From: a virus
Taxonomy: Duplodnaviria > Caudoviricetes
Virus record (IMG/VR): IMGVR_UViG_3300036791_001299
Span: 1-53,914 of that record
Strand: one strand, 5' to 3'
DNA: 53,914 nt
The first letter of the stretch is position 1. Each line of letters starts with the position of its first letter. This document shows positions 3,975 to 51,064 of this stretch, in pieces. The position numbers and the translations under genes were made by a program. The notes beneath the pieces were generated by a model. The model saw nothing but the letters and a program-made list of their open reading frames with translations, did not search any database and was not told the origin of the DNA.

Positions 3975-4918
3975 TGCTGCTCTCCTGAGCGATCCCATAC
4001 TTCCCATTCGTCTGCGGCGGGTGTGGCGGGTGTCTCTGGCACCGGCGCGGCGGGTTCCGGTGCCGGAGCGGCGGCGGCAACGCCAGCCGCCTTCATCTCG
4101 TTGTAAATCTGGCGGGCCAATTCCCGGCTGCGAATCTGATTTGAATGCTTGAGCCCACGGGCCGCGAGAACCTTGTAATAAAGCTCTTCGCCTATCTCTG
4201 ACTTAAGTGCCGCGAAGGCATCCAGCATCACCTTGTAGGCATTCTTCTCCGGCTGCGCGGGGGGTGTGACTAAAGGACCCGGTTGCATCAAGGGCGCGCC
4301 TCCGTCGACGTCCTGGCGGTGCATTTCCTCGGGAACATACATGCCGCCGCACTCGTCGGGGAAGGCCTTGCGCAGAGCACCCGCCTCAGCACATTTGATT
4401 AATTGGTTAGCGGGCATCCTTTTCCACATGGGGACCAAGTCAAAGCCGCCTTCTTTGCGTTTGTACCTGGGCGCGTATTCCTTGAACACGGCAATGGAAT
4501 AAAGCGGAGCCTGAAAGTCCTTGCGGTAGACTCCGACGCGGGCGGCTGCGGGCGGAGTGTCAGCCAGCCAGACTGGCAGCCATCGACCGCTGGCGTCGCA
4601 CCATTCCGGCGGAGTCTGGCCCGCGTATTTGCCACTGCGCTCGGCTTGCAGCCGGAAACCGTCAATGCCGGTTTGAATGGTCATGACATACTTGCCAGCC
4701 TCCTGGTCGTAGCGTTTGATGCAATAGATTTGTTTGGCGAACGGGTCAAGCCCTTTGTGCTTGCAAACCTCAATAAACAGCGAGAATTCGTCGTCGGTGG
4801 TATCCTTGGCGATGGTTTGCTTGAGCAGGTCGAGCTGGTCGCGATTGGGATTGAAACCACGGGGAAGGGTCTCAGCCTTCGGCGTTTCGATAATTTCAGT
4901 TCCAGGTGTCGGTGTCAT
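3971..4918 (-). CDS. bet: Phage recombination protein Bet/RecT (single-strand annealing)
   Basis: GLDPFAKQIY, IQTGIDGFRLQAERSGKYAG, WKRMPANQLIKCAEAGALRKAFP, GMYVPEEM. Confidence 0.92.
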   Translation of the reverse strand: MTPTPGTEIIETPKAETLPRGFNPNRDQLDLLKQTIAKDTTDDEFSLFIEVCKHKGLDPFAKQIYCIKRYDQEAGKYVMTIQTGIDGFRLQAERSGKYAGQTPPEWCDASGRWLPVWLADTPPAAARVGVYRKDFQAPLYSIAVFKEYAPRYKRKEGGFDLVPMWKRMPANQLIKCAEAGALRKAFPDECGGMYVPEEMHRQDVDGGAPLMQPGPLVTPPAQPEKNAYKVMLDAFAALKSEIGEELYYKVLAARGLKHSNQIRSRELARQIYNEMKAAGVAAAAPAPEPAAPVPETPATPAADEWEVWDRSGEQQ

Positions 4919-4933
4919 TGTCGTATTCCTCGG

Positions 4934-5389
4934 TTAAAATTGCTCAGTAGGTTTCAATGCCTGCTCAGCGGCTTGGTAGCTGAGACTGGTAGCTGAGACC
5001 AGAGCCATGCGCATAGCGATGGTCATGGCCAGACATTGCTCCACGTTTAAATTCCACTGCCGCACCATAATCTCGACGCGGCCATCGCGCACGTAGAGAG
5101 TGGCGGGAATCCAGGTCATGCCTTCCATCGGCGGTTGCGAGCAGAAGAATTCGATGCGCGTCAATTTGCCGTTCTGCGTCTCCGTAGGCTCGATACGGCA
5201 GAGCACCCGCTTCGCGTCTTTCAACTCGGTCTCGTGCTGCCGGTCGAGGTCGAAGGCGTCGATTACCGAATGGCATTGCTCGCACACCGCGTAGTCCTGA
5301 GAGCTGGGACCCGTTTCAGAGTCGTAGTCGAGGCGTGTCAGCATGCGGAATTCGGACGGCTGGCCGCAGGACGGGCAATTGAGTGTCAT
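4934..5389 (-). CDS. Hypothetical zinc-ribbon protein; C-terminus encoded by a CRISPR repeat copy
   Basis: CPSCG...CEQC; 3' end overlaps the solitary repeat. Confidence 0.6.
   Translation of the reverse strand: MTLNCPSCGQPSEFRMLTRLDYDSETGPSSQDYAVCEQCHSVIDAFDLDRQHETELKDAKRVLCRIEPTETQNGKLTRIEFFCSQPPMEGMTWIPATLYVRDGRVEIMVRQWNLNVEQCLAMTIAMRMALVSATSLSYQAAEQALKPTEQF
4951..4999 (+). repeat. Solitary CRISPR repeat plus 13-nt tandem duplication of its 3' end
   Basis: GTTTCAATGCCTGCTCAGCGGCTTGGTAGCTGAGAC (4951-4986) then TGGTAGCTGAGAC; 4 mismatches to the array consensus. Confidence 0.9.
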
Positions 5390-5592
5390 TTGGACGCCTT
5401 CACCTTTCCGGAGCGTTGGGCCTGCAGCCACGCCATGGCATCCGCGCGAACAAGCCAGACGCGCCCGTGAATTCTTTTAACTGGCAGTTCGCCGTCCGCG
5501 ATCAAATGCCGGACCAGCCTTGGTCCAAGCCCGGCCATGCGCGCAAATACAGCAGTCGCTATAAAAAGAGGGTCGTTCTGTTTTTGAGGCAT
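5386..5592 (-). CDS. Excisionase-like/HTH_17 DNA-binding protein
   Basis: FARMAGLGPRLVRHLIADGELPVKRIHGRVWLVR. Confidence 0.7.
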   Translation of the reverse strand: MPQKQNDPLFIATAVFARMAGLGPRLVRHLIADGELPVKRIHGRVWLVRADAMAWLQAQRSGKVKASK

Positions 5593-21767: not shown

Positions 21768-22910
21768 TTATTGATGCGGCTGCGGCGGCTGTTGCGGCGG
21801 ATGCGGTGGTGCCGGTGGCGTGTGCGGGGGAGTCGTAGGCTTGCCACTTTTGGCTTCCTTCGCCGCCTTGGCCTCTTTCGCGCCAGCGCTCAGCTGGCCA
21901 ATGCCCGCGATACCGCATTGCGCAGTCACGATCAGCGGACCGCCTTGCACCGGGTCAAGTTTGGTGGCGACCGTCACCGTAACGCTCACGATGCCGTCCT
22001 GCTCGCCGTTGACCACCGTCTCATACTGGATCGACGGATAGTTAAACGTCACCGTATGGGTGGCGTCAAAGGTGGCGGTCAGCGAGGCCTTCGCCGTGCC
22101 CGCAGGAGGCGGAGTAATCAGCATCTGATACTCTTGCGAGCTTTTCAGCAGACGTGCCGTGAAAGTGAACGTCGAGGCGCGCGCGCCCATCTCGAGACGA
22201 CCGCGAATGGCCGCGCCGTTCTGCATGCCACTGCCCGGGAAAAAGCCGGGGCCCACCAGCAGATTATTTTTCCAGCCGATGGTGCCGGACAGAATAGTGG
22301 CCGCGGCAACGTAGTCGACACCGTTGATCGTCAGCGCCATACTGGCCGATAACAGATAGTGCTCGGACACCGGCGCAGGGACTGTGACACCGGAGGGTGT
22401 GACCATCTTGCCGCTGCCCACCCAGTTGACGGTCATGCTCCCGGACTGACGGCCAGGGCCGTAGTTGAAGGTGTACTCGACATCTTCAATGGCGCATCCC
22501 ACAAACTCGTTATCCAGAGCGGTCGCACCGGCTTCGCACACCTGCTCGACCACCGAGAAATACGGCAACTCGAGACCATCGGTGCAGGGGTCGATAGGCT
22601 TGATCGTGTACGTCCCGGCGGCTTCCGTCACTTTGCCCAAAGCGAAGGCGAACGCCCAGGTGGCGAATTCCGCCGAGGCATATTTGTCGATGCGCGCCAG
22701 CGGGTTGTAGCTCACCGGGTAGACGCCATCCACCGAGATAAATTCAGTCCCCTTGCCGATCTCCGCCGCGTCGTTCTCGGTCATGAATCCGGACGGTGCC
22801 AGCTCGGGGTTATTCTGCCGGAAGCGCAAAAACGTCTGAGAGGGCGTGTGGATATCCGCCTGCGCGTCCTGCCCCAGGCCGAGGATCTTATTCTGTATAC
22901 GAGCGGCCAC
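21768..22910 (-). CDS. Major tail (tube) protein with Pro/Gln/Lys-rich C-terminal extension
   Basis: 380 aa beta-rich protein upstream of the chaperone and tape measure genes. Confidence 0.7.
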   Translation of the reverse strand: MAARIQNKILGLGQDAQADIHTPSQTFLRFRQNNPELAPSGFMTENDAAEIGKGTEFISVDGVYPVSYNPLARIDKYASAEFATWAFAFALGKVTEAAGTYTIKPIDPCTDGLELPYFSVVEQVCEAGATALDNEFVGCAIEDVEYTFNYGPGRQSGSMTVNWVGSGKMVTPSGVTVPAPVSEHYLLSASMALTINGVDYVAAATILSGTIGWKNNLLVGPGFFPGSGMQNGAAIRGRLEMGARASTFTFTARLLKSSQEYQMLITPPPAGTAKASLTATFDATHTVTFNYPSIQYETVVNGEQDGIVSVTVTVATKLDPVQGGPLIVTAQCGIAGIGQLSAGAKEAKAAKEAKSGKPTTPPHTPPAPPHPPQQPPQPHQ

Positions 22911-35323: not shown

Positions 35324-35581
35324 TTATTTCAGCCGCGCCGCAACGTGCTCGGCTAATTTCTCGTAATACTTCAGCATCTCAGTGAGCTGCGAGATGCGCT
35401 GCTCGTGCTCCGCAACCGCCCGCCGGAAGGCGTCCTCCGGCCTCTGGACGTAATAGTCCCTGGCATTGGGACCATTCTGGCGGAGCGTTTTGAGTGCCGA
35501 TTCGAGCGCACCGGAACAGTCAAGCGCCTGTTCCAGCAGGTCGCTCGCAGCTGTGCCGTTGAGATGGACGGTGGGCATCAT
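35324..35581 (-). CDS. Hypothetical protein
   Basis: GGAGGTG RBS; PTVHLNGT...PNARDYY phage-type motif. Confidence 0.65.
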   Translation of the reverse strand: MMPTVHLNGTAASDLLEQALDCSGALESALKTLRQNGPNARDYYVQRPEDAFRRAVAEHEQRISQLTEMLKYYEKLAEHVAARLK

Positions 35582-35772
35582 CGCACCACCTCCTGTTTCT
35601 CCGCCCAGACCACCGGCAGGAAGCCGCCCTTCCGGATCCAGCCGTTAAGAGCGGTGACCAGCTCGGCCAATTCAAGCGCATCGAGCGGGTCAATCGCCTT
35701 CTCGCGGTCTGCCTGCATCTGCAGGCGGCGCGCCAGCTCAATCTGGCGTCTGAGATTCTCGTTGGGGTCCAT
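35578..35772 (-). CDS. Hypothetical protein
   Basis: MDPNENL...WIRKGGFLP..W small phage protein pattern. Confidence 0.65.
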   Translation of the reverse strand: MDPNENLRRQIELARRLQMQADREKAIDPLDALELAELVTALNGWIRKGGFLPVVWAEKQEVVR

Positions 35773-36093
35773 TTACTGCTTCACCTCCGCTGCCGGTCCG
35801 ACTTCGATGTCCTTCACCGGCACCCAGCGGCCAGTGCCAGCCTGTCGGCCCCAGGGGCCCTTGCAGCCGCGCATGGTGACCTTGTAGGCCGTGATCCTCA
35901 CGCGAGTGCCGCTACTCTGCTCCAGAGTTGCAAAGACTTCGCGGCCAGCCCGCAGCGAGGCGTTTACGGAATGGGCGGAAGTGTAAATTTTCAACGTCAT
36001 TGGTGTGTGTGCTCCCGACGCCTTGCGGCGTTTCGCCCGGATTCCACGGGCTCCGTTTTCGGTGAGCTGATTTGTTGCGTTGGTGTGTTCCAT
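35773..36093 (-). CDS. Hypothetical protein (leaderless start 36093 or internal start 36000)
   Basis: ORF directly behind the promoter. Confidence 0.5.
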   Translation of the reverse strand: MEHTNATNQLTENGARGIRAKRRKASGAHTPMTLKIYTSAHSVNASLRAGREVFATLEQSSGTRVRITAYKVTMRGCKGPWGRQAGTGRWVPVKDIEVGPAAEVKQ

Positions 36094-36100
36094 GACCATA

Positions 36101-36130
36101 AGAATAGCGCAATGGAAACTATTGTGTCAA
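36101..36130 (-). promoter_or_regulatory. Sigma70-like promoter TTGACA-N18-TATTCT
   Basis: Perfect -35; ATG 7 nt after the -10. Confidence 0.65.
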
Positions 36131-36148
36131 CAGACACGCGAAATTATT

Positions 36149-38206
36149 TTACCGGCGGCGGAATCCGCCCCGCTGCGCGCCCAGACCCGGGTAGGCTGGC
36201 TGCGCAGTCACCGGTGCCGTCCAGGCGGCTTGAGTGGGCTGTGGCACCGGTGCCGGACGTGGCGGCGCTGCGCCTTCGATGGCAATAGCCGCCTCGAAAT
36301 GACGCCAGTGGTCTTCCCCAAACCGGTCCGCGCCCACAATCGAATAGGCCGCCCGGTTGTACACCGCGAGATCGATGGGCTCATTGCGCGGCGCGCGCTT
36401 CTCGTAGACGACGTCGCCGTTGGGCTTGACGATCTTCACCTCGGAGCATAAGCCTTCGAAGTACGTCATGTCATACATCGGCCAGTGATAACAACCGGTC
36501 ACCGGCGTATCGTCCACCGTAGGCACCGCGTGCCGCATCAAATCAAACAATTCAGCCTTGCAGCAGTTCACCCCGACACCCACAATGCGCGTCCCCTGCC
36601 GCTTGCGCGCCGCATCTTCCTTCGAAATGCTGGCAATGACCCGCAGCTGGTCCGGCGTACCCTTGATAGGCACCACCGTGCGCGCCGCGATCAACTTAAT
36701 ACCTTGCGGTCCGTAATGCAGCTGATGCCCCCGCCGCGTAAACTCGTATACCGGCTTCGGGTTTTTGCCGGTGTCGATGGTCATGCAAAGGATCGGCAGA
36801 CTCTTACCCGAGTTGTGCGCCCACTCGCGTCCCAATAACTCATACAGCTGGTCCCACAATTCCCGCGCGCTCACCGGCAACTCCTGGCCATTCTCGCTGA
36901 ACGCTTGCAGCACCCAGTAGCCCATCGACCAGTTTTCGCGGTTTCTACCCCAGGCCTTCACTTCAACCTCGAGACGCGCCGGATGCTCCTGGACGTCAAC
37001 CGCCGCCGTCAGGAACAGACCCCGCTGCGGCACCACCGCAGTATCCCCGAACGGATAAGCCTCCCGCCGCGCAAACAACAGATCCTTCTCCGGCGCTTCG
37101 CCTTCTTCCACCCATTCCTCGGCGAGCACCGTATTGATAAACGTTTTGAGACTCTGCCGGTCGTCTTTGGCATTCAGAAACTGCTGCGAAATGGACGCCG
37201 CCGACTTCCAGCTCGGTGGCACATACAAGTGGTTCAGCCAGAATCCAGCCGTGCGATTGCCCGCCTGCGGACGATCCGCGCGCCACTCGACATAGTGATC
37301 CACCGCATCCCAGCGCTCCCGCTCCGTCCACGGCTTATCGCAACTGATGCAGTAATAGCGCGCCGTCGCCGCCTGCAGCTCCCGCGCCACGGCGGTAGAC
37401 CACTTGACGTGATACCCGTCCCGGTCGCGGAATCGCAACACCTGCATGGTGCCGCAATGCGGACACGGCACGTAGGGGCGCCGCTGGTCGGACAACGCAA
37501 ATGCCCTGCCGATCCGGCTGCGCCCGGCCACCGTCGGACTGCACGCCAGGATACGCTTGCGGCGCGTCCCGAAGGTCATGGCGCGTTCCCACGCAAGGTC
37601 GATAGGATCACCTTCTCCCTGACGCTCCTGGCTGCCGCCGACATCCTGGTCGTACTTGTCGATCTCATCGCACACCAGATACCGGATGGTGTGCTGCGCC
37701 AGATCCACCGGCGTGCGCGCACTGATGATCAGCAGGTTGCCGCCCGGGAAGGTCTTGCTCTGGATGGTATTCGAGCCATCGTGGATGCCGTCCAGCACCT
37801 TATTGCGCAGGATCTGGCAATCCCGCACCATGGGCATCAACCGGCGCTTCGAGAAATCGCGCGCGGCGTCTTTTTTGGGCTCGACCAATAAGATGGGCCC
37901 CGGCTCCTCGGCGATCCAATACGCAATCGCCAGCATGATCGCGAGACTCTTGATCACCTGGGTGGACGACATGATCACCACGGTCTCGATGGTGTCGTCC
38001 GTTATGGCGTCGAGAATGCCCCGCTGCCAGCCGTACAACCGCAAGGGACCGGTCGACGAGCTGTACTCCGGCGACAGCACCACGTTGGCTTCCGACCATT
38101 GCGAAAGCGGCACCCGGGGACGCACCCGGAAGATCTCAGAGTGCAAGCTCTGAAATACCGGCGGCGGCCAGTCCCAGCCTGGAACTAAGAAAGATGGCGT
38201 TTCCAT
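36149..38206 (-). CDS. terL: Terminase large subunit (lambda gpA family)
   Basis: variant Walker A SSTQVIKS, LVCDEIDKY, CSPT, CPHCG, AAVDVQ, IDTG, RNEPIDL. Confidence 0.95.
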   Translation of the reverse strand: METPSFLVPGWDWPPPVFQSLHSEIFRVRPRVPLSQWSEANVVLSPEYSSSTGPLRLYGWQRGILDAITDDTIETVVIMSSTQVIKSLAIMLAIAYWIAEEPGPILLVEPKKDAARDFSKRRLMPMVRDCQILRNKVLDGIHDGSNTIQSKTFPGGNLLIISARTPVDLAQHTIRYLVCDEIDKYDQDVGGSQERQGEGDPIDLAWERAMTFGTRRKRILACSPTVAGRSRIGRAFALSDQRRPYVPCPHCGTMQVLRFRDRDGYHVKWSTAVARELQAATARYYCISCDKPWTERERWDAVDHYVEWRADRPQAGNRTAGFWLNHLYVPPSWKSAASISQQFLNAKDDRQSLKTFINTVLAEEWVEEGEAPEKDLLFARREAYPFGDTAVVPQRGLFLTAAVDVQEHPARLEVEVKAWGRNRENWSMGYWVLQAFSENGQELPVSARELWDQLYELLGREWAHNSGKSLPILCMTIDTGKNPKPVYEFTRRGHQLHYGPQGIKLIAARTVVPIKGTPDQLRVIASISKEDAARKRQGTRIVGVGVNCCKAELFDLMRHAVPTVDDTPVTGCYHWPMYDMTYFEGLCSEVKIVKPNGDVVYEKRAPRNEPIDLAVYNRAAYSIVGADRFGEDHWRHFEAAIAIEGAAPPRPAPVPQPTQAAWTAPVTAQPAYPGLGAQRGGFRRR

Positions 38207-38351
38207 TTACCACGCGCCTTATTGGCTCTGCCAAACTTCGGATCCAATGCCCGCCGCATGTCAATCGCCTCGCGCAGCCGACGCCAATACTCACACCACG
38301 CCCGAAACGCTGAGGCCGACATCTCTGGCATCTGTAAACCCATATTTTAAA

Positions 38352-38618
38352 GTCTCACCTATCAAGCCGGTGAACAGGCATTGCGTAGCTTTTCTCCATA
38401 ATAATTTCTCCGTAGGTCTCACCAACCAAGCCGGTGAACAGGCATTGCGACTTTAGTGCATGATAGTCTCAGTTACCAGGCCACCAAGCAGGCATTGCGT
38501 CTCCCTCATCCTCGTCCCGGCTACCAAAGCCGCCGAGCAGGCATTGCTTGGTTCCGGCCCCATCTCGACTAGAGCCTTCTGCGTTTCAGCTACCAAGCCG
38601 CTGAACAGGCATTGTGGA
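38352..38618 (-). CRISPR. Distal array segment: 5 variant repeats
   Basis: Repeats at 38352, 38416, 38466, 38514, 38583; spacers about 28, 14, 12, 32 nt. Confidence 0.8.
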
Positions 38619-39263
38619 CTCCTCGGCAATCGCGCGCTGCGCCAATACTAACAGGTCCACGCTGTCAGGCAGCGCCGCGGCCCGTACTGCCACATATGCT
38701 GCCTCCGCCACCCTCCTCATTACCGTAATCTCTATTTGCTGGCACGCCGCGCAGGCCGCACACGTGGCGCACCACGCTGCTTTGGCCGCTCCCCTTGCCT
38801 CCTTCGAGCGATGCTGAACTGCCCGGACTGATGCCGCCATCCCGGCTGCGACTGCCTTTTCGTGAGAACGATCCGTACCGTTTAGCCACCCATACGCCCA
38901 GCCCACAAAGGACGGATCGCGGTCCACCGCCATCGCGCACATAACCGCAAACCGCACCCTCGCGCTTGCCGCAACCTCCGGCATCTCGATGCGCCGGATG
39001 GTGGTCAGCGACCTACACCCACACTTGAGTTGTCCGTCACGCAGTCCTATTTCGCCCTCAGCCTCCCAGAGCAGTATGTTTCGGGGATCAACGTATATTG
39101 CCGGGATCAATAAAGCCGCCAGGAGCGGATGCTCGTGAGCATGTATCCACCCGTCCGTAAAAAGCTCCTTGCCGGTGCCGGTCGCGGCGTGGGTGACATT
39201 CTCCCCCCACTCGATCCCGTCTCCCGACTGGTCATTGGCGTCAGCCACTTTATAGAGGGTCAT
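38586..39263 (-). CDS. Phage hypothetical protein embedded in the CRISPR array
   Basis: 225 aa, AAGG RBS, flanked by repeats on both sides; stop codon lies inside a repeat. Confidence 0.75.
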   Translation of the reverse strand: MTLYKVADANDQSGDGIEWGENVTHAATGTGKELFTDGWIHAHEHPLLAALLIPAIYVDPRNILLWEAEGEIGLRDGQLKCGCRSLTTIRRIEMPEVAASARVRFAVMCAMAVDRDPSFVGWAYGWLNGTDRSHEKAVAAGMAASVRAVQHRSKEARGAAKAAWCATCAACAACQQIEITVMRRVAEAAYVAVRAAALPDSVDLLVLAQRAIAEESTMPVQRLGS

Positions 39264-39325
39264 TTGGTTTTTACCTTACCTTTCCGGGTAGACTAATGCG
39301 CACGGGCTTACTGTGCTCGGCGCTG

Positions 39326-39362
39326 GTCGGCAATGCCTGTTCAGTGGCTTGGTTACTGAGGC
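39326..39362 (+). repeat. Inverted CRISPR repeat copy
   Basis: GTCGGCAATGCCTGTTCAGTGGCTTGGTTACTGAGGC, opposite orientation to the array. Confidence 0.85.
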
Positions 39363-39380
39363 CGTCAACACACATCGCGC

Positions 39381-41379
39381 GTCCCGGCTACCAAGCCGCC
39401 GGGCAGGCACCTCGGATTACTTCACGGATGTCTCAGCTACTAGGCCGCCGAGCAGGCGTTGCGACAGACCATAAGATCTTCGCGTCACACCAACTAAGCC
39501 GGTGAACAGGCATTGCAACGCGGAATGCGACGTGCGTTGGCGTCCACCCGAAGAGTCGCGTCTCAGCTACCAAGCCGCTGAGCAGGCACCGCGACTATCG
39601 CTAAAGGCTAATGTCCCAGCTACCAAGCCGCTGAACAGGCGTTGCAACGCAGCTTGCTGACCCAGATCAAGACCTCCAGATCCATCCCGTCTCAGTAACT
39701 AAGCCACCGAGCAGGCGTTGCGACCCCATGTCTCTATCAACGGACGTCACGACAAACAAGTCTCAGCTACCAAGCCGCTGAACAGGCGTTGCGACGCACG
39801 GCGGCGGCGATCCGCACCAGGAAGTCCACGTCTCAGCTACCAAGCCACCGAGCAGGCGTTGCGACACCACGAAAGGATCGGGAGCAATGACGTCTCAGTA
39901 ACCAAGCCACTGAGCAGGCGTTGCGACGGAGGGTGGCGTGATCGCTCATGAAACCAGTATGCGCTGTCTCAGCTACCAAGCCACTGAGCAGGCGTTGCGA
40001 CGCTGCATCCTTCGGTTGTTCCCATCGCACCTGCCACGTCTCAGCTACCAAGCCACTGAGCAGGCGTTGCGACGATTTAAACCCTGGTATATGCTCATGC
40101 ATAATAGTCGGGTCTCAGCTACCAAGCCACTGAGCAGGCGTTGCGACTGCCAGCCATTTTTCGAGCGCCGCCGTTGGGACGCGTCTCAGCTACCAAGCCA
40201 CTGAGCAGGCGTTGCGACGATTTAAACCCTGGTATATGCTCATGCATAATAGTCGGGTCTCAGCTACCAAGCCACTGAGCAGGCGTTGCGACGCTGTTAA
40301 AGTAGCGCGGTGCCGTTTGTGCGGTTAGTTGTCTCAGTAACCAAGCCACTGAGCAGGCGTTGCGACCACGTCGACAGATCTCTTTCACGGCGATGACGTC
40401 CTGTCTCAGCTACCAAGCCACTGAGCAGGCGTTGCGACGGGGTCGAGTATGACGCCGATATTCAGCCTCGAGCCGTTGTCTCAGCTACCAAGCCACTGAG
40501 CAGGCGTTGCGACGTTCGAAAACTGGCCGGAGATCGCCACCACTGACCCTGTCTCAGCTACCAAGCCACTGAGCAGGCGTTGCGACAGGAGCCGCCCTTG
40601 CAGGCGGATGATCTGGCGCTTGTCTCAGCTACCAAGCCACTGAGCAGGCGTTGCGACACTGCGATCCGGTGCGACCGGCGGGTATCAGCAGTAGTCTCAG
40701 CTACCAAGCCACTGAGCAGGCGTTGCGACGTTGTATTTCGGACAATACTATCCGTTGGAATTTGTTGTCTCAGCTACCAAGCCACTGAGCAGGCGTTGCG
40801 ACATCCGTGGTCCGCGTACTGCGGGTGCCGACATCGTCGTCTCAGCTACCAAGCCACTGAGCAGGCGTTGCGACGTCCAGGTCAAAATCATCAAGCACGG
40901 ACGGTTTAGCGTCTCAGCTACCAAGCCACTGAGCAGGCGTTGCGACCTAAACCCCGGAAAAAGTTCGAAGCACCCTACCCTGTCTCAGCTACCAAGCCAC
41001 TGAGCAGGCGTTGCGACGCGGTGACATCGCCGAGCGCCGCGCCCCAGATGTAGAGTCTCAGCTACCAAGCCACTGAGCAGGCGTTGCGACACGGAAACTG
41101 GTCGGGCTGGAGGAAATCGAGCAGTAGGGGTCTCAGCTACCAAGCCACTGAGCAGGCGTTGCGACCGCGGTCCGGCCTCCGGTCTCCTCTTTCTCGGAGC
41201 GTCTCAGCTACCAAGCCACTGAGCAGGCGTTGCGACAACCCGGACCTGCTCGCTCGATACCGGAACCGTCTTGTCTCAGCTACCAAGCCACTGAGCAGGC
41301 GTTGCGACCATTCGGCAGGGGTAGATACCCCCCAACTACCTACGTCTCAGCTACCAAGCCACTGAGCAGGCGTTGCGAC
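39381..41379 (-). CRISPR. CRISPR array, 29 repeats of 36 nt (21 near-identical, 8 variant)
   Basis: Minus-strand repeat GTCGCAACGCCTGCTCAGTGGCTTGGTAGCTGAGAC; mostly 34-40 nt spacers; divergence increases away from the cas gene. Confidence 0.98.
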
Positions 41380-41382
41380 AGC

Positions 41383-43191
41383 CTAGTCGCCAGCTGCCAT
41401 GTTTTCATCAGGTTCCAGACCGGTTTGCGAGCGGTCTGGTTTTGCGCCCTCTTCCACCTCCGTAACTCGTTGTTTCTTATCAGATGCCACCTCTGGCATC
41501 GCCCCACCGCTCGCACGCATCTGCCCCCACGCCTTCAACAGATTCTTCGCCGCATTCAAATCCTGGTCCCACAACATCCCGCACCCACCGCACCGGTGCA
41601 TGATACTCGCCGCTTGATCCCACTCATGCGCATACCCGCACGCATGGCACTCCCGCGTCGTATACGGCGCAGGCAGCTCAACCACCGCCACCCCTTCCCG
41701 GCTGCACGCACTCTTAATCGCCAGCCGCAACGTCCCCGTACTGGCCATAAACCGGTACGTCCCCGACCCCGTGACAACCGCCGCCGACTCCGGCTGAGGA
41801 TGCTCCACCACCGAGCGCAAATCAAATTCCTCCACCACCACCACGTCATAATCCCGCGCCAGCCCTGCCGCGAAATCCCGATACCGCGCCAGCCTCCGGC
41901 CCGTCATCTGATGCTGCAGATTCCGCCACCAGTCCGTCAAATGCAGAAACTGCTTGCGCCACCGGACCGCCTCCGCAAACATTCCCTCATCACCCGGCAG
42001 CCGGTTATCCGCCCACCAGCGGATCAACGCCGCCACACGTTCCCCGGACCGCCACTGATACAGATACGCCGACCGCGTCCGCCACTCCTCCGCCAACTCC
42101 CGCTGGCCCAGCCACTCCACTAGCTCCGGGTGAAACTGCTCCCGGCTCTTATCGCAGATCGACCGCAGATCCGCGACCTTCTGGAACTGCGCGATATCGG
42201 AGCCCTCAATCCGCAATTCACCATGGCCGCCCAGCGAGTCAGCCCAGTATCCCACCCGCACCGCGCCCTCCGGCTTCAATCGCCAGCCCAGATCGAGCGC
42301 CAATACCCGGCTGCCGGTCTTCTCACTAGGCCGCGGCAAGCTGATGCTCACATTCAGCTGCCAGTGCGTCTTCCCCGCCAGGATGCGGCGGCTGGCGCTT
42401 ACACTCTTGATACGCGCCTCCGGAGGCAGATCCCGATGGTAAACAATCGGAATCTCAACCCACACCGGCGACCGATCCGCATTGCTGCCGATCCGCACGC
42501 GCGCATACCGCCACTTCCGGCCCGGCGTCGGTGGATCCACCTGGAACAGCGTGTTGGTGCCGCCTACGCAGTCGCTGACGCACGCGCCACCCTGCACCTG
42601 CGCGGTAACCGTCCCTTCGCCGCGGAAGCCGTGATAACGCAGCTCGCTATCCCCCTTGCCCTTGCGCGCCAGCTGACGCGCCGTCTCCGCCCGCTGAATG
42701 ATGTCGTTATAGGAGCCCCAATAGAGCCCCAGACCCGCCGCCGCTTGCCGCGCCTTAATCGTGCGCCGGTACGCCCGCTCCGTATTGGCATCCAGCTGCT
42801 GCCGCTTGGCCTCATGCCGCGATTCCTTGGTCGCCTTCCGCTCCGCGATCAACGGCTTTCGCTCCGCCTCCGCCGCCGCAATGCGCTCCGGCAGATCACC
42901 AAGATCCGCGCCCTTGCGTTTACGCGCGGACTGGCGAGCCTTCTTGATCAACTCCCGGCACAAACTGATCTCCGCCGACAGCTCATCGATCCGCGTTTGC
43001 TGGTCATCCCGCATGATCCGCCGGTACGCCGTATCGCGCGTACGCTCGATGGTGACCAGGACATTCCATAGCCGGTTGCCCAGCCGCATCTGTCCTCGAG
43101 CCGAATCTTCATTGATCACCGGTGCGATCCGCGCCGGTACCGTGCCATAGGAGTACACCCGGCTGGCTGTATCGTCTGTTTTACGCTGCAT
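41383..43191 (-). CDS. cas12m: Type V CRISPR effector, Cas12m-like (V-M/V-U1, TnpB-derived), ~602 aa
   Basis: LYWGSYN, LRYHGFRGEGTVTAQVQ, PIVYHRDLP, RuvC-I ALDLGWR, RuvC-II VVVEE, TTRECHACG...CGGCG zinc finger, RuvC-III DQDLNAAKNL; abuts the array. Confidence 0.85.
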   Translation of the reverse strand: MQRKTDDTASRVYSYGTVPARIAPVINEDSARGQMRLGNRLWNVLVTIERTRDTAYRRIMRDDQQTRIDELSAEISLCRELIKKARQSARKRKGADLGDLPERIAAAEAERKPLIAERKATKESRHEAKRQQLDANTERAYRRTIKARQAAAGLGLYWGSYNDIIQRAETARQLARKGKGDSELRYHGFRGEGTVTAQVQGGACVSDCVGGTNTLFQVDPPTPGRKWRYARVRIGSNADRSPVWVEIPIVYHRDLPPEARIKSVSASRRILAGKTHWQLNVSISLPRPSEKTGSRVLALDLGWRLKPEGAVRVGYWADSLGGHGELRIEGSDIAQFQKVADLRSICDKSREQFHPELVEWLGQRELAEEWRTRSAYLYQWRSGERVAALIRWWADNRLPGDEGMFAEAVRWRKQFLHLTDWWRNLQHQMTGRRLARYRDFAAGLARDYDVVVVEEFDLRSVVEHPQPESAAVVTGSGTYRFMASTGTLRLAIKSACSREGVAVVELPAPYTTRECHACGYAHEWDQAASIMHRCGGCGMLWDQDLNAAKNLLKAWGQMRASGGAMPEVASDKKQRVTEVEEGAKPDRSQTGLEPDENMAAGD

Positions 43192-43198
43192 GCTTAAA

Positions 43199-43228
43199 AT
43201 TGTATTTAAAGGTGGGCCAAATTGCGAA
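43199..43228 (-). promoter_or_regulatory. Candidate leaderless promoter for cas12m (TTCGCA-N18-TACAAT-N7-ATG)
   Basis: No SD before ATG 43191; -10 box 7 nt upstream. Confidence 0.5.
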
Positions 43229-43250
43229 AACAACGGCGGGTGGTTTTGTT

Positions 43251-43709
43251 TTATCGTCGCGGCTCGAAAACGATAACCTGGACGGACTCCATCGAGCCAA
43301 GCGCCTGCTCTATTTCCGGACGCACATCACCCCAGCTCAGCCCGCCATTGCCGCATCCCAGCGCAGGTATTGCTAGGGACCGAATATTTTCCTCTTCAAT
43401 CACACGGCGAAGATCCCGCAGTCCGTCGACAATCCATTTCAGCTGGGAGGGATGCCGCCAGTGCTCCTTCGTGGGAAAGTTGATCACCCACTGCGGACCG
43501 TGAAGGTCGTTGGTCTTCGTAACAAACATGCGCCCGATTCTGACTTCATTGCGGTTGCACGCTAATACGTAGGCGCGATAATTCTTCGGATAAGCATATC
43601 TGAATTTGAACGCAATCCCCGCGCCCATCGTGCCGACCGTGTTCACGGTATTGACCAGCGCTTCCACTGGCTCTCTCAAGAGATCCCCGTCTACCCGAAA
43701 TGTGATCAT
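43251..43709 (-). CDS. DarG-like macrodomain (ADP-ribosyl hydrolase)
   Basis: GDLL...ALVNTVNTVGTMGAGIA..F, INFPTKEHWR, SLAIPALGCGNGGLSW. Confidence 0.88.
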   Translation of the reverse strand: MITFRVDGDLLREPVEALVNTVNTVGTMGAGIAFKFRYAYPKNYRAYVLACNRNEVRIGRMFVTKTNDLHGPQWVINFPTKEHWRHPSQLKWIVDGLRDLRRVIEEENIRSLAIPALGCGNGGLSWGDVRPEIEQALGSMESVQVIVFEPRR

Positions 43710-44248
43710 GCCACCTTCTGTGCGTCGAGATCGGCGTTGAGTATCCGGTTAATGTTTTCCCACTTCGCCAGTACCCGCAGCATGGCGGCCTCCAGGACAG
43801 CGCGGATCTTCAGCGGCTCGGTCTCGGACGCCAGCGAGTCAGCCAGCTCGGAAGGCAGCCTCAGCAATTCATCGCGCCCATCGACCAGGAACTTTGCCGC
43901 CCACCGCGACACATAGCCGACCGGCAACAATTCCCCGCGCCGCACCATATTCTCAATCTCTTGCTTCTCGGCGAGCGCCCTCGCCCGGCGCAGCTTCGCG
44001 GACTCCAGCGCATCGGTACGCTCCGCCGCCGCGATCACCATCTCGTATTCCGAGCGCGGAGTCTCTTTCTCCGCCACCGCCTTCTCCGGAATAGGTGGCA
44101 CCGGCGTTGTACCATGCCGCTGCGCCGCAAACGCACGTATCTGCTCGACCGTCTTGCCCGCCCGCATCATATTCGATACCGTCTTGGGCGGCAGATTCAC
44201 ATCGCGCGCGAGCGAATTAACGCCTACATAGGTGACCCGTTGCATCAT
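43706..44248 (-). CDS. terS: Terminase small subunit (Nu1-like)
   Basis: N-terminal HTH; AKLRRARALAEKQEIENMVRRGELLP coiled coil typical of Nu1. Confidence 0.75.
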   Translation of the reverse strand: MMQRVTYVGVNSLARDVNLPPKTVSNMMRAGKTVEQIRAFAAQRHGTTPVPPIPEKAVAEKETPRSEYEMVIAAAERTDALESAKLRRARALAEKQEIENMVRRGELLPVGYVSRWAAKFLVDGRDELLRLPSELADSLASETEPLKIRAVLEAAMLRVLAKWENINRILNADLDAQKVA

Positions 44249-44251
44249 AGG

Positions 44252-44593
44252 TCAATCGTATTCGATCCAATTGATCAACGTCGGCGTCCCCGCTTGCACC
44301 CGGCACTGATAGTAATGACCGGCCAGCACCACGCAGACCAACTGTTGGATCGACGATTGCGGTTGATTACCCGCGATTCGCGCCACTTCTGTTCCCGGCG
44401 GGTTAGCCCCATCACTGAAGAAACTCAGCGTCGAGGCCTTACCCCCTAGATCCCAGCAAGAAAAAACCAGTATCGTTTTGCCGGTGGTGTTTTGGTAAAC
44501 GACATCTGCAGTGCGCTCCGCGGTCACAATGGTCTGCCGCTGTAACACGGTTGGAATACCGTGACGATAGAAAGTACCAGTGCTGTTGGGCAT
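44252..44593 (-). CDS. Hypothetical protein
   Basis: 113-aa ORF upstream of terS. Confidence 0.55.
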   Translation of the reverse strand: MPNSTGTFYRHGIPTVLQRQTIVTAERTADVVYQNTTGKTILVFSCWDLGGKASTLSFFSDGANPPGTEVARIAGNQPQSSIQQLVCVVLAGHYYQCRVQAGTPTLINWIEYD

Positions 44594-44626
44594 ATCTCAT
44601 TAAACTACCCCCAAATGTAGCTAACA

Positions 44627-49086: not shown

Positions 49087-49314
49087 GAAGGAAAGGCGAA
49101 AACGCATGTGAAAAGGGGTCTTGGCGAAATAGTAAGGGGTCCCGGAAAATTTGAAAAATCCCAGGAAAAACCGGCCCTGGAAAATTTCCCGGCCAAAAAA
49201 GGGGTCCCCGGCTGGGCCGCCGTTCCCGGCAACACGCATCCCTTGTTGACAAAAACTGCTCTCCTACACGATACTCATGTGTACAAGGCGGCGGTCACTG
49301 ACTGCCAGCCTTAA
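49087..49314 (+). repeat. 228-bp direct repeat, copy 2, with promoter TTGACA-N18-GATACT (49246-49275)
   Basis: Near-identical to 47148-47375. Confidence 0.92.
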
Positions 49315-49318
49315 GCCG

Positions 49319-49354
49319 GTCTTAATGCCCGTTCAGTGGCTTGGTAGCTGAGAC
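49319..49354 (+). repeat. Solitary CRISPR repeat
   Basis: GTCTTAATGCCCGTTCAGTGGCTTGGTAGCTGAGAC; last 22 nt identical to the array consensus. Confidence 0.9.
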
Positions 49355-50287
49355 CCCTATCTTAATTCGGATCTCGCGTGGAGCCGGTGTATTGCCGCGT
49401 GGACCGCGCACAGTTTGCGGCGACCAGAATACGCCATGCAGTTTGCCAAACAAGCCACGGCCTTCGCGATAGTCGCGGAAGTGGCCGCGGCAGATATGGA
49501 GCGACTTCTGGATGCTGCCGCCGGGATCATGCGACCGGCCTTCGCGGCGAAGAATCTGTTTCAGCGGCTCGATCACCAGCGTCTTCGGCACGACCGGCTT
49601 AACACCGTGGTTGCGCTCGTACTTTTTGGCGAGTTTGGGCGGCACCGGACCGTCGACCACCGCCACGTTTTTGCAATGCAGAAATGAGATGGCGAGCAAT
49701 GCCGGATGCAAGTAAGTGATGAAATTGTGCATCTCGTTTTTATAGTCGTCCGCGCAGTAAATCACCATTGCGGGTTGCTGCAGCAGGTGTCCATCAGCAT
49801 CGATAAACAGCACAATTGAGCCGATGGGTCCGGTTGCCGTGACACTGCGGAAACCGTAATCGTGAAATTGCTCGCAGTGCAGAATCCACCGCGTGCCGTC
49901 CGGAATCGGCATGGCTTTACGCACATGGTCCGGGTTGGCGACGATGCAAAGCGCGCCTTGACGACCGTTAGGCATGAACGCCGTCACGTCGGTGTCGCCT
50001 TTCTCTTTCGAGTGGATACGCCGGGGCATTTTACACTCCAGCCAAAACATCGGATAGGGTGGTGCTAAATTCGGGAAATCATCCCGCAGATCCCAATACT
50101 CCTGGTCGCTCGAATAGTAATAATCAGCAACGTTGTCGATTAGTAGCACCGGCAGCTGCGGGTCGTGTAGGCATGTCCACACACGAGCGCCCAGCTCATT
50201 CCAGCGCTCTTGAAGCTGCGGCGCGATAAACCACGGCATGGCGATTTTGGCTCCAGGTGCGCGGATGTCGTCGATTAAACGCGGCAT
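49322..50287 (-). CDS. Hypothetical phage protein; C-terminus encoded by a CRISPR repeat copy
   Basis: 321 aa, HICRGHF...LFG...FW...VRG motif; ends VSATKPLNGH. Confidence 0.75.
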   Translation of the reverse strand: MPRLIDDIRAPGAKIAMPWFIAPQLQERWNELGARVWTCLHDPQLPVLLIDNVADYYYSSDQEYWDLRDDFPNLAPPYPMFWLECKMPRRIHSKEKGDTDVTAFMPNGRQGALCIVANPDHVRKAMPIPDGTRWILHCEQFHDYGFRSVTATGPIGSIVLFIDADGHLLQQPAMVIYCADDYKNEMHNFITYLHPALLAISFLHCKNVAVVDGPVPPKLAKKYERNHGVKPVVPKTLVIEPLKQILRREGRSHDPGGSIQKSLHICRGHFRDYREGRGLFGKLHGVFWSPQTVRGPRGNTPAPREIRIKIGVSATKPLNGH

Positions 50288-50553
50288 GGTTTCTCCGACT
50301 CAATCTCGTAGTGGCCGCCACCCGCGATTTCGCGCCAGGGACCAAAGCTCTCGCGCATGAGCAGCATGACAATGCCGCCGGGACCCAGGAGCACACCATC
50401 TTCGAGCACGCGCACCCACTCTGGTTTGTCGGCGAGTGTGAGTCCGATGGACTTCTGATTGGCGGAGATAACCTCCACCGTGGCTTGTGCGGCTTGTGCG
50501 GGTGATCCATGCGGATGCACCCAAACGACGTCGCCTTTGTTGATCTGTGCCAT
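50275..50553 (-). CDS. Hypothetical protein
   Basis: Likely start MAQINKGD. Confidence 0.55.
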   Translation of the reverse strand: MAQINKGDVVWVHPHGSPAQAAQATVEVISANQKSIGLTLADKPEWVRVLEDGVLLGPGGIVMLLMRESFGPWREIAGGGHYEIESEKPCRV

Positions 50554-50557
50554 TGGC

Positions 50558-51064
50558 TCAGTCCTCCGGCTCCAGCTTCGGCTTGAGTATTTTGCGCAGA
50601 AACTCTTGCAGGTTGCCTTCGAATTTCCCCAGTGGTATCGCGCCAAGCTGGAATTCCGGCTCTGACTCTTTCTCGTCGCTGATGTCGACCAGCACCCAGT
50701 CGCGGCGCACTCCCACGCACGCCACGTGCAGCGCATGCAATTCAGAGCGCGCCGAATACCAGAAGAGCTCCTTAGTCAGATCAGTGATATGGTCCAGCTT
50801 GTTGAACTGGTCTTTGAGCACCGCCTTTTCTTCGTGCCCCAACATGAAGTCACCTTCGATTCGCGACTCGAGCAGTTTCAGCTCGAGCATATACTTGCGG
50901 TGCAGGCAACCCACGGCGCGAGTGGCGCGGTCGATAATGACGCCGAGCATCTTCTGGGTGTCCTTGGGTGGCTCGAGCGAATCACCCGCCTTGCGGATCT
51001 CCTCGTCAGTGACCTTCGCGACCGCCGTGATCAGGTCTTTAAGTACTATTGGCATTCCTTCCAT
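50558..51064 (-). CDS. Hypothetical protein
   Basis: AAGGAG RBS, 168 aa. Confidence 0.65.
   Translation of the reverse strand: MEGMPIVLKDLITAVAKVTDEEIRKAGDSLEPPKDTQKMLGVIIDRATRAVGCLHRKYMLELKLLESRIEGDFMLGHEEKAVLKDQFNKLDHITDLTKELFWYSARSELHALHVACVGVRRDWVLVDISDEKESEPEFQLGAIPLGKFEGNLQEFLRKILKPKLEPED

Follow-up and report, generated by a model that had tools for sequence, protein, structure and literature searches.

The window analysed here, the whole 53,914-nucleotide stretch of IMG/VR record IMGVR_UViG_3300036791_001299 (Duplodnaviria; Caudoviricetes), contains a CRISPR array that is split by a protein-coding gene, an open reading frame (ORF) for a 225-residue protein, P0001. The record, 53,914 bp, is classed as linear and approximately 76% complete, and the window is a genome fragment of a tailed phage. 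There are 34 copies of a 36-nt repeat between 38352 and 41379, all in a single orientation and in the same sense as both the embedded ORF and the gene for the type V-M effector Cas12m, whose stop codon (41383) lies 4 nt before the array. On the minus strand the gene order is a terminase small subunit-like gene (terS), a macrodomain gene, cas12m, the 34 repeats with the embedded ORF, a 52-residue ORF and the terminase large subunit gene (terL). The array and the cassette within it comprise the following, in the direction of transcription.

39381..41379, minus strand: CRISPR array part 1, 29 repeats (R6-R34), uniform beside cas12m, with a degenerate far end where spacers are 13-18 nt
39381-39416, minus strand: repeat R6, the array copy directly upstream of the ORF
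39326..39362, plus strand: inverted repeat copy (an "anti-repeat" in the minus-strand transcript), 18 nt past R6 and 62 nt before the ATG of the ORF
39264..39325, minus strand: 5' untranslated stretch of P0001, whose AAGG, 10 nt ahead of the ATG, resembles a Shine-Dalgarno motif
38586..39263, minus strand: ORF P0001, 225 residues, ATG start, with a DUF7666 N-domain and a helical C-domain
38583..38618, minus strand: repeat R5, the directly downstream copy, coding for the last 9-10 residues of the ORF and its TGA
38352..38618, minus strand: CRISPR array part 2, made up of R1-R5, five degenerate repeats whose spacers are 13-32 nt

The embedded gene
The ORF occupies a 762-nt gap between R6 and R5 and, as a preliminary description of the sequence had stated, it is co-oriented with the array, has a ribosome binding site (RBS) and is flanked by repeats on both sides. 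Of these repeats 29 are upstream and 5 downstream. Its GC content by codon position (0.65/0.52/0.68) is coding-like. The TGA stop codon (38586-38588) lies in the 3' part of R5, and the repeat encodes the C-terminus of the protein, ..(S)TMPVQRLGS. That the downstream repeat supplies the stop had been correctly noted, and is what chance would predict, because in the CRISPR RNA (crRNA) sense the repeat holds a stop in two of its three frames. The same description had found no transposase or insertion sequence (IS) signature, and our searches agree: no transposase family in Pfam, PHROGs, NCBIfam or PADLOC matched P0001. We rejected an insertion sequence or transposon as the source of the cassette, as there is no transposase, the sole inverted repeats are CRISPR repeat copies, and no junction duplication was seen.

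P0001 is a member of the DUF7666 family
Homology searches identified 121 homologs of P0001 at E <= 1e-3, the best at E 1.2e-43, with 59% identity across a stretch that covers the N-terminal 59% of P0001, and relatives at 68 distinct viral loci. The Pfam family DUF7666 (PF24703) is matched by 88 of the 120 aligned family members, and the BFVD matches of the P0001 model are DUF7666 proteins. P0001 itself scores 19.8 bits against DUF7666 (E 0.0012, residues 1-98), below the gathering cut-off of 27, whereas its similarity in sequence and fold to carriers of the domain is significant; P0001 genuinely belongs to a large family of phage genes. With the DUF7666 proteins of phages and giant viruses it has in common an N-terminal domain of 95 residues (identity up to 59%), and it differs from them in its sub-threshold Pfam score, in its departures from conserved positions (below) and in being the sole member seen beside a CRISPR array. 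No family in PHROGs, NCBIfam or PADLOC accommodates P0001, and a literature search for "DUF7666" returned no paper.

An AlphaFold2 (AF2) model built on the family alignment, with a mean predicted local distance difference test score (pLDDT) of 86.9, has a beta-rich N-domain (residues 1-95) and a helical C-domain, a two-domain build shared with an Atlas cluster of 2,232 members that is 98% viral. The Atlas neighbours of P0001 are viral clusters in which DUF7666 is found in 11-48% of members and Imm5_like in 15-42%, shares at which a cluster name is a lead only. When the N-domain alone was modelled (pLDDT 89.7), VIA-align matched it to Arr (Z 6.8, root mean square deviation 3.5, 84 aligned), KptA (Z 5.7) and PARP13 (Z 5.4). 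Judged by title, the majority of its 50 VIA-align rows are ADP-ribosyltransferases (ARTs), Tpt1/KptA phosphotransferases and related toxins that use nicotinamide adenine dinucleotide (NAD), every one with Z < 8, and the lower rows include Rhs, diphtheria, pertussis, ParT, MbcT and DarT entries. Foldseek returned nothing at E <= 0.001 for the N-domain, nor for the whole model against the PDB, and PDB sequences searched with a profile from the family alignment yielded no meaningful match. The whole-model VIA-align result was set aside, as generic helical bundles predominate in it. The N-domain comparisons provide a lead to an ART-like fold in this model, as distinct from membership of that superfamily. 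If one were to guess at a His-Tyr-Glu site from strand positions, the candidates would be H25, Y43 and E67 or E69; P0001 itself has His at 43.

The start of P0001 aligns with that of the family, and its last conserved helix (DLLVLAQRAI) is kept. Homologs stop 0-16 residues past this helix, the closest full-length one ending ..LAEQAMREEI. The check proposed in the preliminary description, whether repeat sequence had replaced the native C-terminus, thus has a limited answer: the repeat accounts for the tail alone, and the loss of native residues is a few at most. P0001 deviates at 10 of 53 strongly conserved columns, compared to a family median of 2, making it the fourth most deviant of the 120 members. 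The changes include C35F (C in 117/119), Y43H (Y in 117/120) and H57Y (H in 113/120); the invariant residues H41, W66, G82 and T88 are retained.

At the 18 homolog loci whose surroundings were compared, the neighbours are a mixture of replication and accessory genes (including helicase, primase, ParB, methyltransferase, integrase and NAMPT) with no common partner. At one of these 18 (L030:2638-4984), the DUF7666 homolog directly follows genes for a nicotinamide phosphoribosyltransferase and a NUDIX/cytidylyltransferase of NAD salvage, a neighbourhood of interest because the modelled N-domain fold of DUF7666 is ART-like.

An accessory island between the terminase genes
The genes surrounding the array, all on the minus strand, are as follows.

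43706..44248, minus strand: terminase small subunit-like gene, terS (phrog_57, E 2.2e-11), the first gene of the operon segment
43251..43709, minus strand: DarG-like macrodomain gene, 152 residues, macrodomain only (Pfam Macro, E 2.6e-22)
41383..43233, minus strand: cas12m, type V-M effector, an ORF of 616 residues (PDB 23vw_A "Cas12m", E 9.7e-89 over residues 36-567)
38185..38343, minus strand: ORF of 52 residues (orf52), beginning 8 nt past R1 and overlapping the start of terL
36149..38206, minus strand: terminase large subunit gene of the gpA type, terL (GpA_ATPase, E 2.5e-62; GpA_nuclease, E 2.2e-63; phrog_15, E 4.2e-168)

The effector is homologous to characterised Cas12m proteins, matching Cas12m2 (8hhl, E 1.2e-23) and Pfam Cas12f1-like_TNB in addition to 23vw_A, and it is accompanied by a co-oriented array of ~36-nt repeats with a 3' stem, as expected of type V-M. 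A database record (P0122, 568 residues) is 100% identical to this Cas12m, and the genuine start of the gene is probably internal to the 616-residue ORF. No adaptation genes were found near cas12m or the array. The macrodomain protein is close to an equivalog of antitoxin DarG in NCBIfam (antitoxin_DarG, E 9.2e-73, 245.4 bits where the cut-off is 250) and also matches PADLOC DarG (E 2.9e-70); it does not have the C-terminal half of DarG, and probably serves the phage in counter-defence against DNA ADP-ribosylation of the DarT type. No family in Pfam, PHROGs or PADLOC matched the 52-residue ORF.

In 11 related phage loci, homologs of terS adjoin terL. The interval between the two genes is ~5,500 nt in this phage, versus 0-818 nt in 11 of the 11 close relatives that have both genes (terL 73-78% identical), and none of these 11 has a relative of cas12m, the macrodomain gene or the P0001 gene in the gap. 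An accessory island of ~5.5 kb, composed of the macrodomain gene, cas12m, the array and the embedded ORF, is thus inserted between terS and terL. A megablast search of 36000-44600 against the phage collection gave no match. A scan for the sigma-70 consensus, the only promoter type covered, found 38100-41600 of the minus strand devoid of promoter-like sites, and thus none for P0001. Because of this, and because terL is downstream of the entire array, terL would most simply be expressed by transcription that runs through the whole array and the embedded ORF. In one relative (L083:1538-4540), the terL match is in two pieces approximately 1.07 kb apart (residues 4-89 and 86-637), possibly the result of an intron, intein or homing-endonuclease insertion.

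The association of P0001 with a CRISPR array is not conserved. None of the 68 loci with P0001 homologs has this repeat or relatives of cas12m, terL, terS or the macrodomain gene; 11 of them were flagged in a k-mer screen, and these were dismissed as Ala-rich/pentapeptide coding repeats or iterons, with no CRISPR-like array. Conversely, the P0001 gene is missing from the related Cas12m loci (G001, whose effector is 52% identical, L154 and L155), and 111 stored loci, the majority around Cas12m relatives, lack it as well. Macrodomain and DUF7666 genes occurred together in none of those 111 loci or the 68 DUF7666 loci. The DUF7666-in-Cas12m-array arrangement is unique to this phage. Of the possibilities raised in the preliminary description, that of a captured gene is the supported one, because the homolog loci are without arrays and the related Cas12m loci are without the gene.

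The repeats retain their stem
In the array sense the repeat ends with a stem followed by ..GAGAC, as do those of arrays downstream of cas12m at related loci. The cas12m-proximal repeats are identical and separated by spacers of 34-38 nt; divergence sets in from ~39760 downwards, and in this eroded end of the array (38352-39760) the many spacers of 13-18 nt alternate with spacers of 28-40 nt. As the published guide-target duplex of Cas12m2 is 17 bp (PMC10442227, PMC11013384), it is feasible that some of the short-spacer units still work. One spacer is present twice (40074-40111 and 40219-40256), the consequence of duplication of a 111-nt repeat-spacer-repeat unit at 100% identity; this was the sole real match when the spacers were compared with the rest of the window, all others being stretches of 12-19 nt at chance level.

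Across 18 distinct repeat copies, R5 and R6 included, the stem is 99.1% paired and five of its six pairs have changes on both sides. None of 500 shuffles (0/500) reached the observed values for the share of paired cells, the count of cells changed on both sides or the covariation score, and 27 reached the number of pairs with a both-sides change; slid stem controls were only 22-51% paired. The compensatory changes lie in eroded repeats, where for example CTCAG/CTGAG has become CCCGG/CCGGG or TCACC/GGTGA. A proposed pseudoknot helix with the 5' part of the repeat is 94.4% paired, with no both-sides change. The degenerate repeats still look functional.

Inverted and solitary repeat copies
The preliminary description overlooked that the ORF cassette is flanked by repeat copies in inverted arrangement, the copy at 39326-39362 and R5. 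The inverted copy is 85% complementary to R5 over 34 nt, and 81-88% complementary to other repeats. It may derive from an inversion or from a head-to-head array junction. In a predicted fold of 881 nt the inverted copy pairs with R5 and encloses the ORF in a loop, in both the minimum free energy (MFE) and centroid structures, a pairing that could mask R5 or create an RNase III site. The z-score of that fold is weak (-1.75), and the local fold of R6, the inverted copy and the 5' untranslated region is not unusually stable (z -1.33). Two further copies stand alone elsewhere in the window, both in the sense opposite to that of the array.

4950..4986, plus strand: solitary repeat copy, 31 nt upstream of the recT ATG and overlapping the 3' end of ORF 4934-5431 (minus strand)
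49318..49354, plus strand: solitary repeat copy, overlapping the 3' end of ORF 49322-50287 (minus strand)

Just upstream of the former is a promoter-like plus-strand site (4912-4940, GTGTCA-17-TAAAAT), and the latter is preceded by a near-consensus plus-strand promoter (49246-49275, TTGACA-18-GATACT); the scan found no sigma-70-like promoter for the inverted copy at 39326. The copies at 4950 and 49318 look like stand-alone crRNA-like genes whose "guides" would be antisense to the adjoining gene, and no further target of these guides was found in the window.

Genes between repeats in other phages
To place the layout among its relatives we assembled a set of loci around Cas12m relatives, 70 of them viral and 35 genomic. 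Searches with a single Cas12m protein (viral contigs) or a two-sequence alignment (genome contigs) returned nothing, whereas wider alignments succeeded; a repeat-pattern scan of viral contigs gave two loci only. Of 107 loci scanned, including the metagenome loci L154 and L155, 68 have array-like repeats, and in several there are gene-sized gaps between co-oriented copies of the same repeat. In L218/L220, two contigs that are 100% identical over 5 kb, six repeats are followed by a 110-residue ORF and at least five further repeats. This ORF (L218:7560-8200), on a ~150-kb phage contig with a Cas12-like array, is in the position of a spacer, has a GGAGG ribosome binding site, codon-position GC of 0.57/0.33/0.71 and a stop of its own, and is succeeded by degenerate repeats. 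In L182, an eroded array (28 repeats) precedes several small co-oriented ORFs, after which come two more repeats, and the TAG of the last ORF is inside the downstream repeat. Four ORFs lie between the array and a terminal repeat in L203/L204, and cas12m itself has co-oriented repeats both upstream and downstream in L155 (1-2700), L200, L203/L204 and L243. The interruption in L169 is an ordinary IS1-like transposase insertion between array halves. The embedded ORFs of these other loci had no family match. Repeat-bracketed genes are thus found again in three or more other type V lineages of phages.

Repeat copies outside arrays were also seen in other phages. In G001 (L153), a related 61-kb Cas12m phage, there is a tandem pair of repeats at 21850-22150, 21 nt upstream of a gene start, each copy preceded by a unit containing CATAAT, and a further solitary copy at 50536-50563, all in array sense. 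A 202-kb phage contig (L150 (G002), ~1991-2024; L174) has a lone copy resembling the window repeat between two genes, ~100 kb from that phage's own Cas12m-like gene and array, whose repeat differs.

Origin and expression of the embedded gene
We think it probable, with some reserve, that P0001 is cargo, an accessory gene captured by the eroded tail of a phage-borne Cas12m array within a late operon. The gene would have entered the old, eroded array end by recombination at repeat sequences, a route suggested because both junctions are in repeat copies, one direct and one inverted. P0001 would be transcribed within a late transcript of terS, the macrodomain gene, cas12m, the array and terL, which is its most likely means of expression because the sigma-70 scan finds no promoter of its own, and would be translated from its own start. 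Its position between repeats would be a by-product of the evolution of a phage array without adaptation, in which there is recombination, erosion and scattering of repeats among genes, and as captured cargo the embedded layout is not a dedicated CRISPR-controlled switch. Several points weigh against this interpretation. Simple capture does not account for the inverted repeat copy directly upstream, which could have a function; with the R5 and R6 hairpins kept, Cas12m should cut there, and expression could then hardly escape some coupling to Cas12m; the promoter scan covered only the sigma-70 consensus; and no close relative of the cassette was found.

Such coupling is the essence of an alternative that we regard as unlikely, though it deserves to be taken seriously, in which expression of P0001 depends on cleavage of the polycistronic transcript by Cas12m upstream of each repeat scaffold. 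Cas12m2 cuts pre-crRNA upstream of a ~29-nt scaffold, the 5' 7 nt of its repeat being disordered and its crRNAs 50-60 nt long, and characterised Cas12m proteins process their own pre-crRNA and bind DNA in a manner dependent on the protospacer adjacent motif (PAM) without cleaving it (PMC10442227, PMC11013384). As the TGA of P0001 is within the 3' portion of R5, cleavage at R5 would strip the last 9-10 codons and the stop, leaving a non-stop mRNA to be rescued and degraded. Full-length P0001 would then be produced chiefly under a shortage or inhibition of Cas12m, or with R5 (or R6) hidden by pairing to the inverted copy, and P0001, as a possible NAD-using enzyme, could be a back-up effector or toxin to which the DarG-like macrodomain is a possible antidote. 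The preliminary description had likewise predicted that processing would clip the last codons of the gene, a prediction that agrees with the published biochemistry and with the covariation that has kept the R5 and R6 hairpins, and which remains conditional on cleavage in this transcript. The looping out of the ORF in both predicted 881-nt structures, the many toxins among the ARTs to which the N-domain model is matched, and the existence of CRISPR-repressed protein toxins (CreP; bioRxiv 10.1101/2024.01.05.574328) would also be in keeping with coupling. Against it, when spacer seeds (12 nt, <=1 mismatch) were compared with both strands of 38100-39460 none matched, leaving no CreA-like guide; the arrangement is unique to this phage, and macrodomain and DUF7666 genes have not been found together elsewhere; the inverted copy fits R5 no better than it fits other repeats; the fold z-scores are weak; and P0001 is without the near-invariant C35, Y43 and H57 and has no PADLOC family. 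The further proposal of the preliminary description, a toxin or regulator gated by Cas12m, drew no direct support from these results, there being no seed match upstream, no conservation of the arrangement and divergence at conserved sites. A broader version, which we consider rather improbable, is that phage-borne Cas12m repeats also punctuate operons, with cleavage and binding by Cas12m at such repeats setting mRNA ends, stability and translation. The "giant spacers" would then be the DUF7666 gene, orf52-terL after the last repeat, the cargo of L218, L182 and L203, and cas12m, and P0001 would lose its stop codon unless the inverted copy masks R5.

The divergence of P0001 from its family, and its Pfam score under the gathering cut-off, would suit a decaying relic that landed in a dead array end, where selection is gone, and has not yet acquired a stop; the repeats all around are eroded, and long open frames are common at 59% GC. 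We doubt this, as the 225-codon frame is intact, with full-length homology, the correct start and the C-terminal helix, the invariant residues are retained, the structural model is confident (mean pLDDT 86.9) and GC by codon position is coding-like. In addition, a run belonging to another study yielded a 151-nt contig with exact identity to 38702-38852. Repeats can lead metagenome assemblers into false joins, raising the prospect of a chimera in which an ORF from elsewhere was joined into the array via repeat copies, and the Logan assembly of the probable source run does collapse the uniform part of the array, skipping from 39891 to 40331 and from 40402 to 41344. This second assembler, however, reproduces 35500-39891 with 0 differences and at a depth (18.7) equal to that of the flanks, and R5, R6 and the inverted copy are distinct variants whose longest exact stretch shared with other copies is ~25 nt. 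Being from the same sample, the Logan assembly excludes an assembler artefact and is not independent biology, and we consider a chimera very improbable indeed. Among contigs of runs X1/X2 none joined across the ORF, although contigs cannot demonstrate the absence of such a variant.

Comparison to known systems
A close parallel to the locus is that of the myxophage MV-1 (bioRxiv 10.64898/2026.09.14.751636), in which a compact Cas12m is likewise directly followed by a co-oriented array, and which, like the locus studied here, has no cas1/cas2 nearby and no identified targets. The MV-1 array has eight spacers, and no gene inside it is described in that report. In this phage, by comparison, the array lies in the terS-terL interval, is interrupted by a protein-coding gene, and has copies of its repeat scattered in the genome.

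Interruption of a CRISPR array by an insertion sequence is familiar from IS6110 in the DR locus of Mycobacterium tuberculosis. Such arrays, of which L169 is an example, also have an insert the size of a gene between repeats belonging to one array. The P0001 cassette differs from them in having no transposase or target-site duplication, and in consisting of a co-oriented phage accessory gene that ends in a repeat and is bracketed by an inverted copy.

In CreTA/CreAP modules (bioRxiv 10.1101/2024.01.05.574328), a phage-derived protein-coding gene is likewise present in a CRISPR-cas locus beside degenerate repeats, and loss of effector activity releases the gene, an idea that is conceivable here. 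CreA consists of a spacer with a repeat on either side, and this spacer matches the promoter of the toxin beside a PAM; there is no such match in this window. We looked for a module of this type and rejected it, as no PAM-proximal 12-mer matches 38100-39460 (<=1 mismatch) and no spacer match of >=12 nt lies in the cassette. Coupling in this phage, if any, would be at the level of RNA processing, compared to transcriptional repression in CreTA/CreAP.

Single repeat copies outside arrays are also a feature of stand-alone crRNA-like regulators (bioRxiv 10.1101/2023.03.03.530964) and of the RNA anti-CRISPRs formed by solitary repeats (PMC10651486). Two of the three solitary copies of this phage (4950, 39326 and 49318) have promoter-like sites. 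Unlike those systems, they mimic the repeat of their own genome, are in the sense opposite to that of the array, lie at gene boundaries, and have no detectable target in the window.

In the literature on protein-coding genes inside arrays or on arrays flanking cas12, we met only IS interruptions and CreTA-type modules, which is not proof of absence from print, and in the literature searched we came upon no account of type V-M arrays in which genes other than those for transposases are embedded. The ART-like fold, a lead from the N-domain model, is the first functional lead for DUF7666, a large viral family without a known function. CRISPR arrays are usually regarded as guide-RNA factories only, and here an array in an essential phage late operon carries a protein-coding gene; genes bracketed by repeats are a theme common to several unrelated phages. 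If it is true that Cas12m processing shapes these mRNAs, a CRISPR effector would double as a viral mRNA-processing or regulatory factor.

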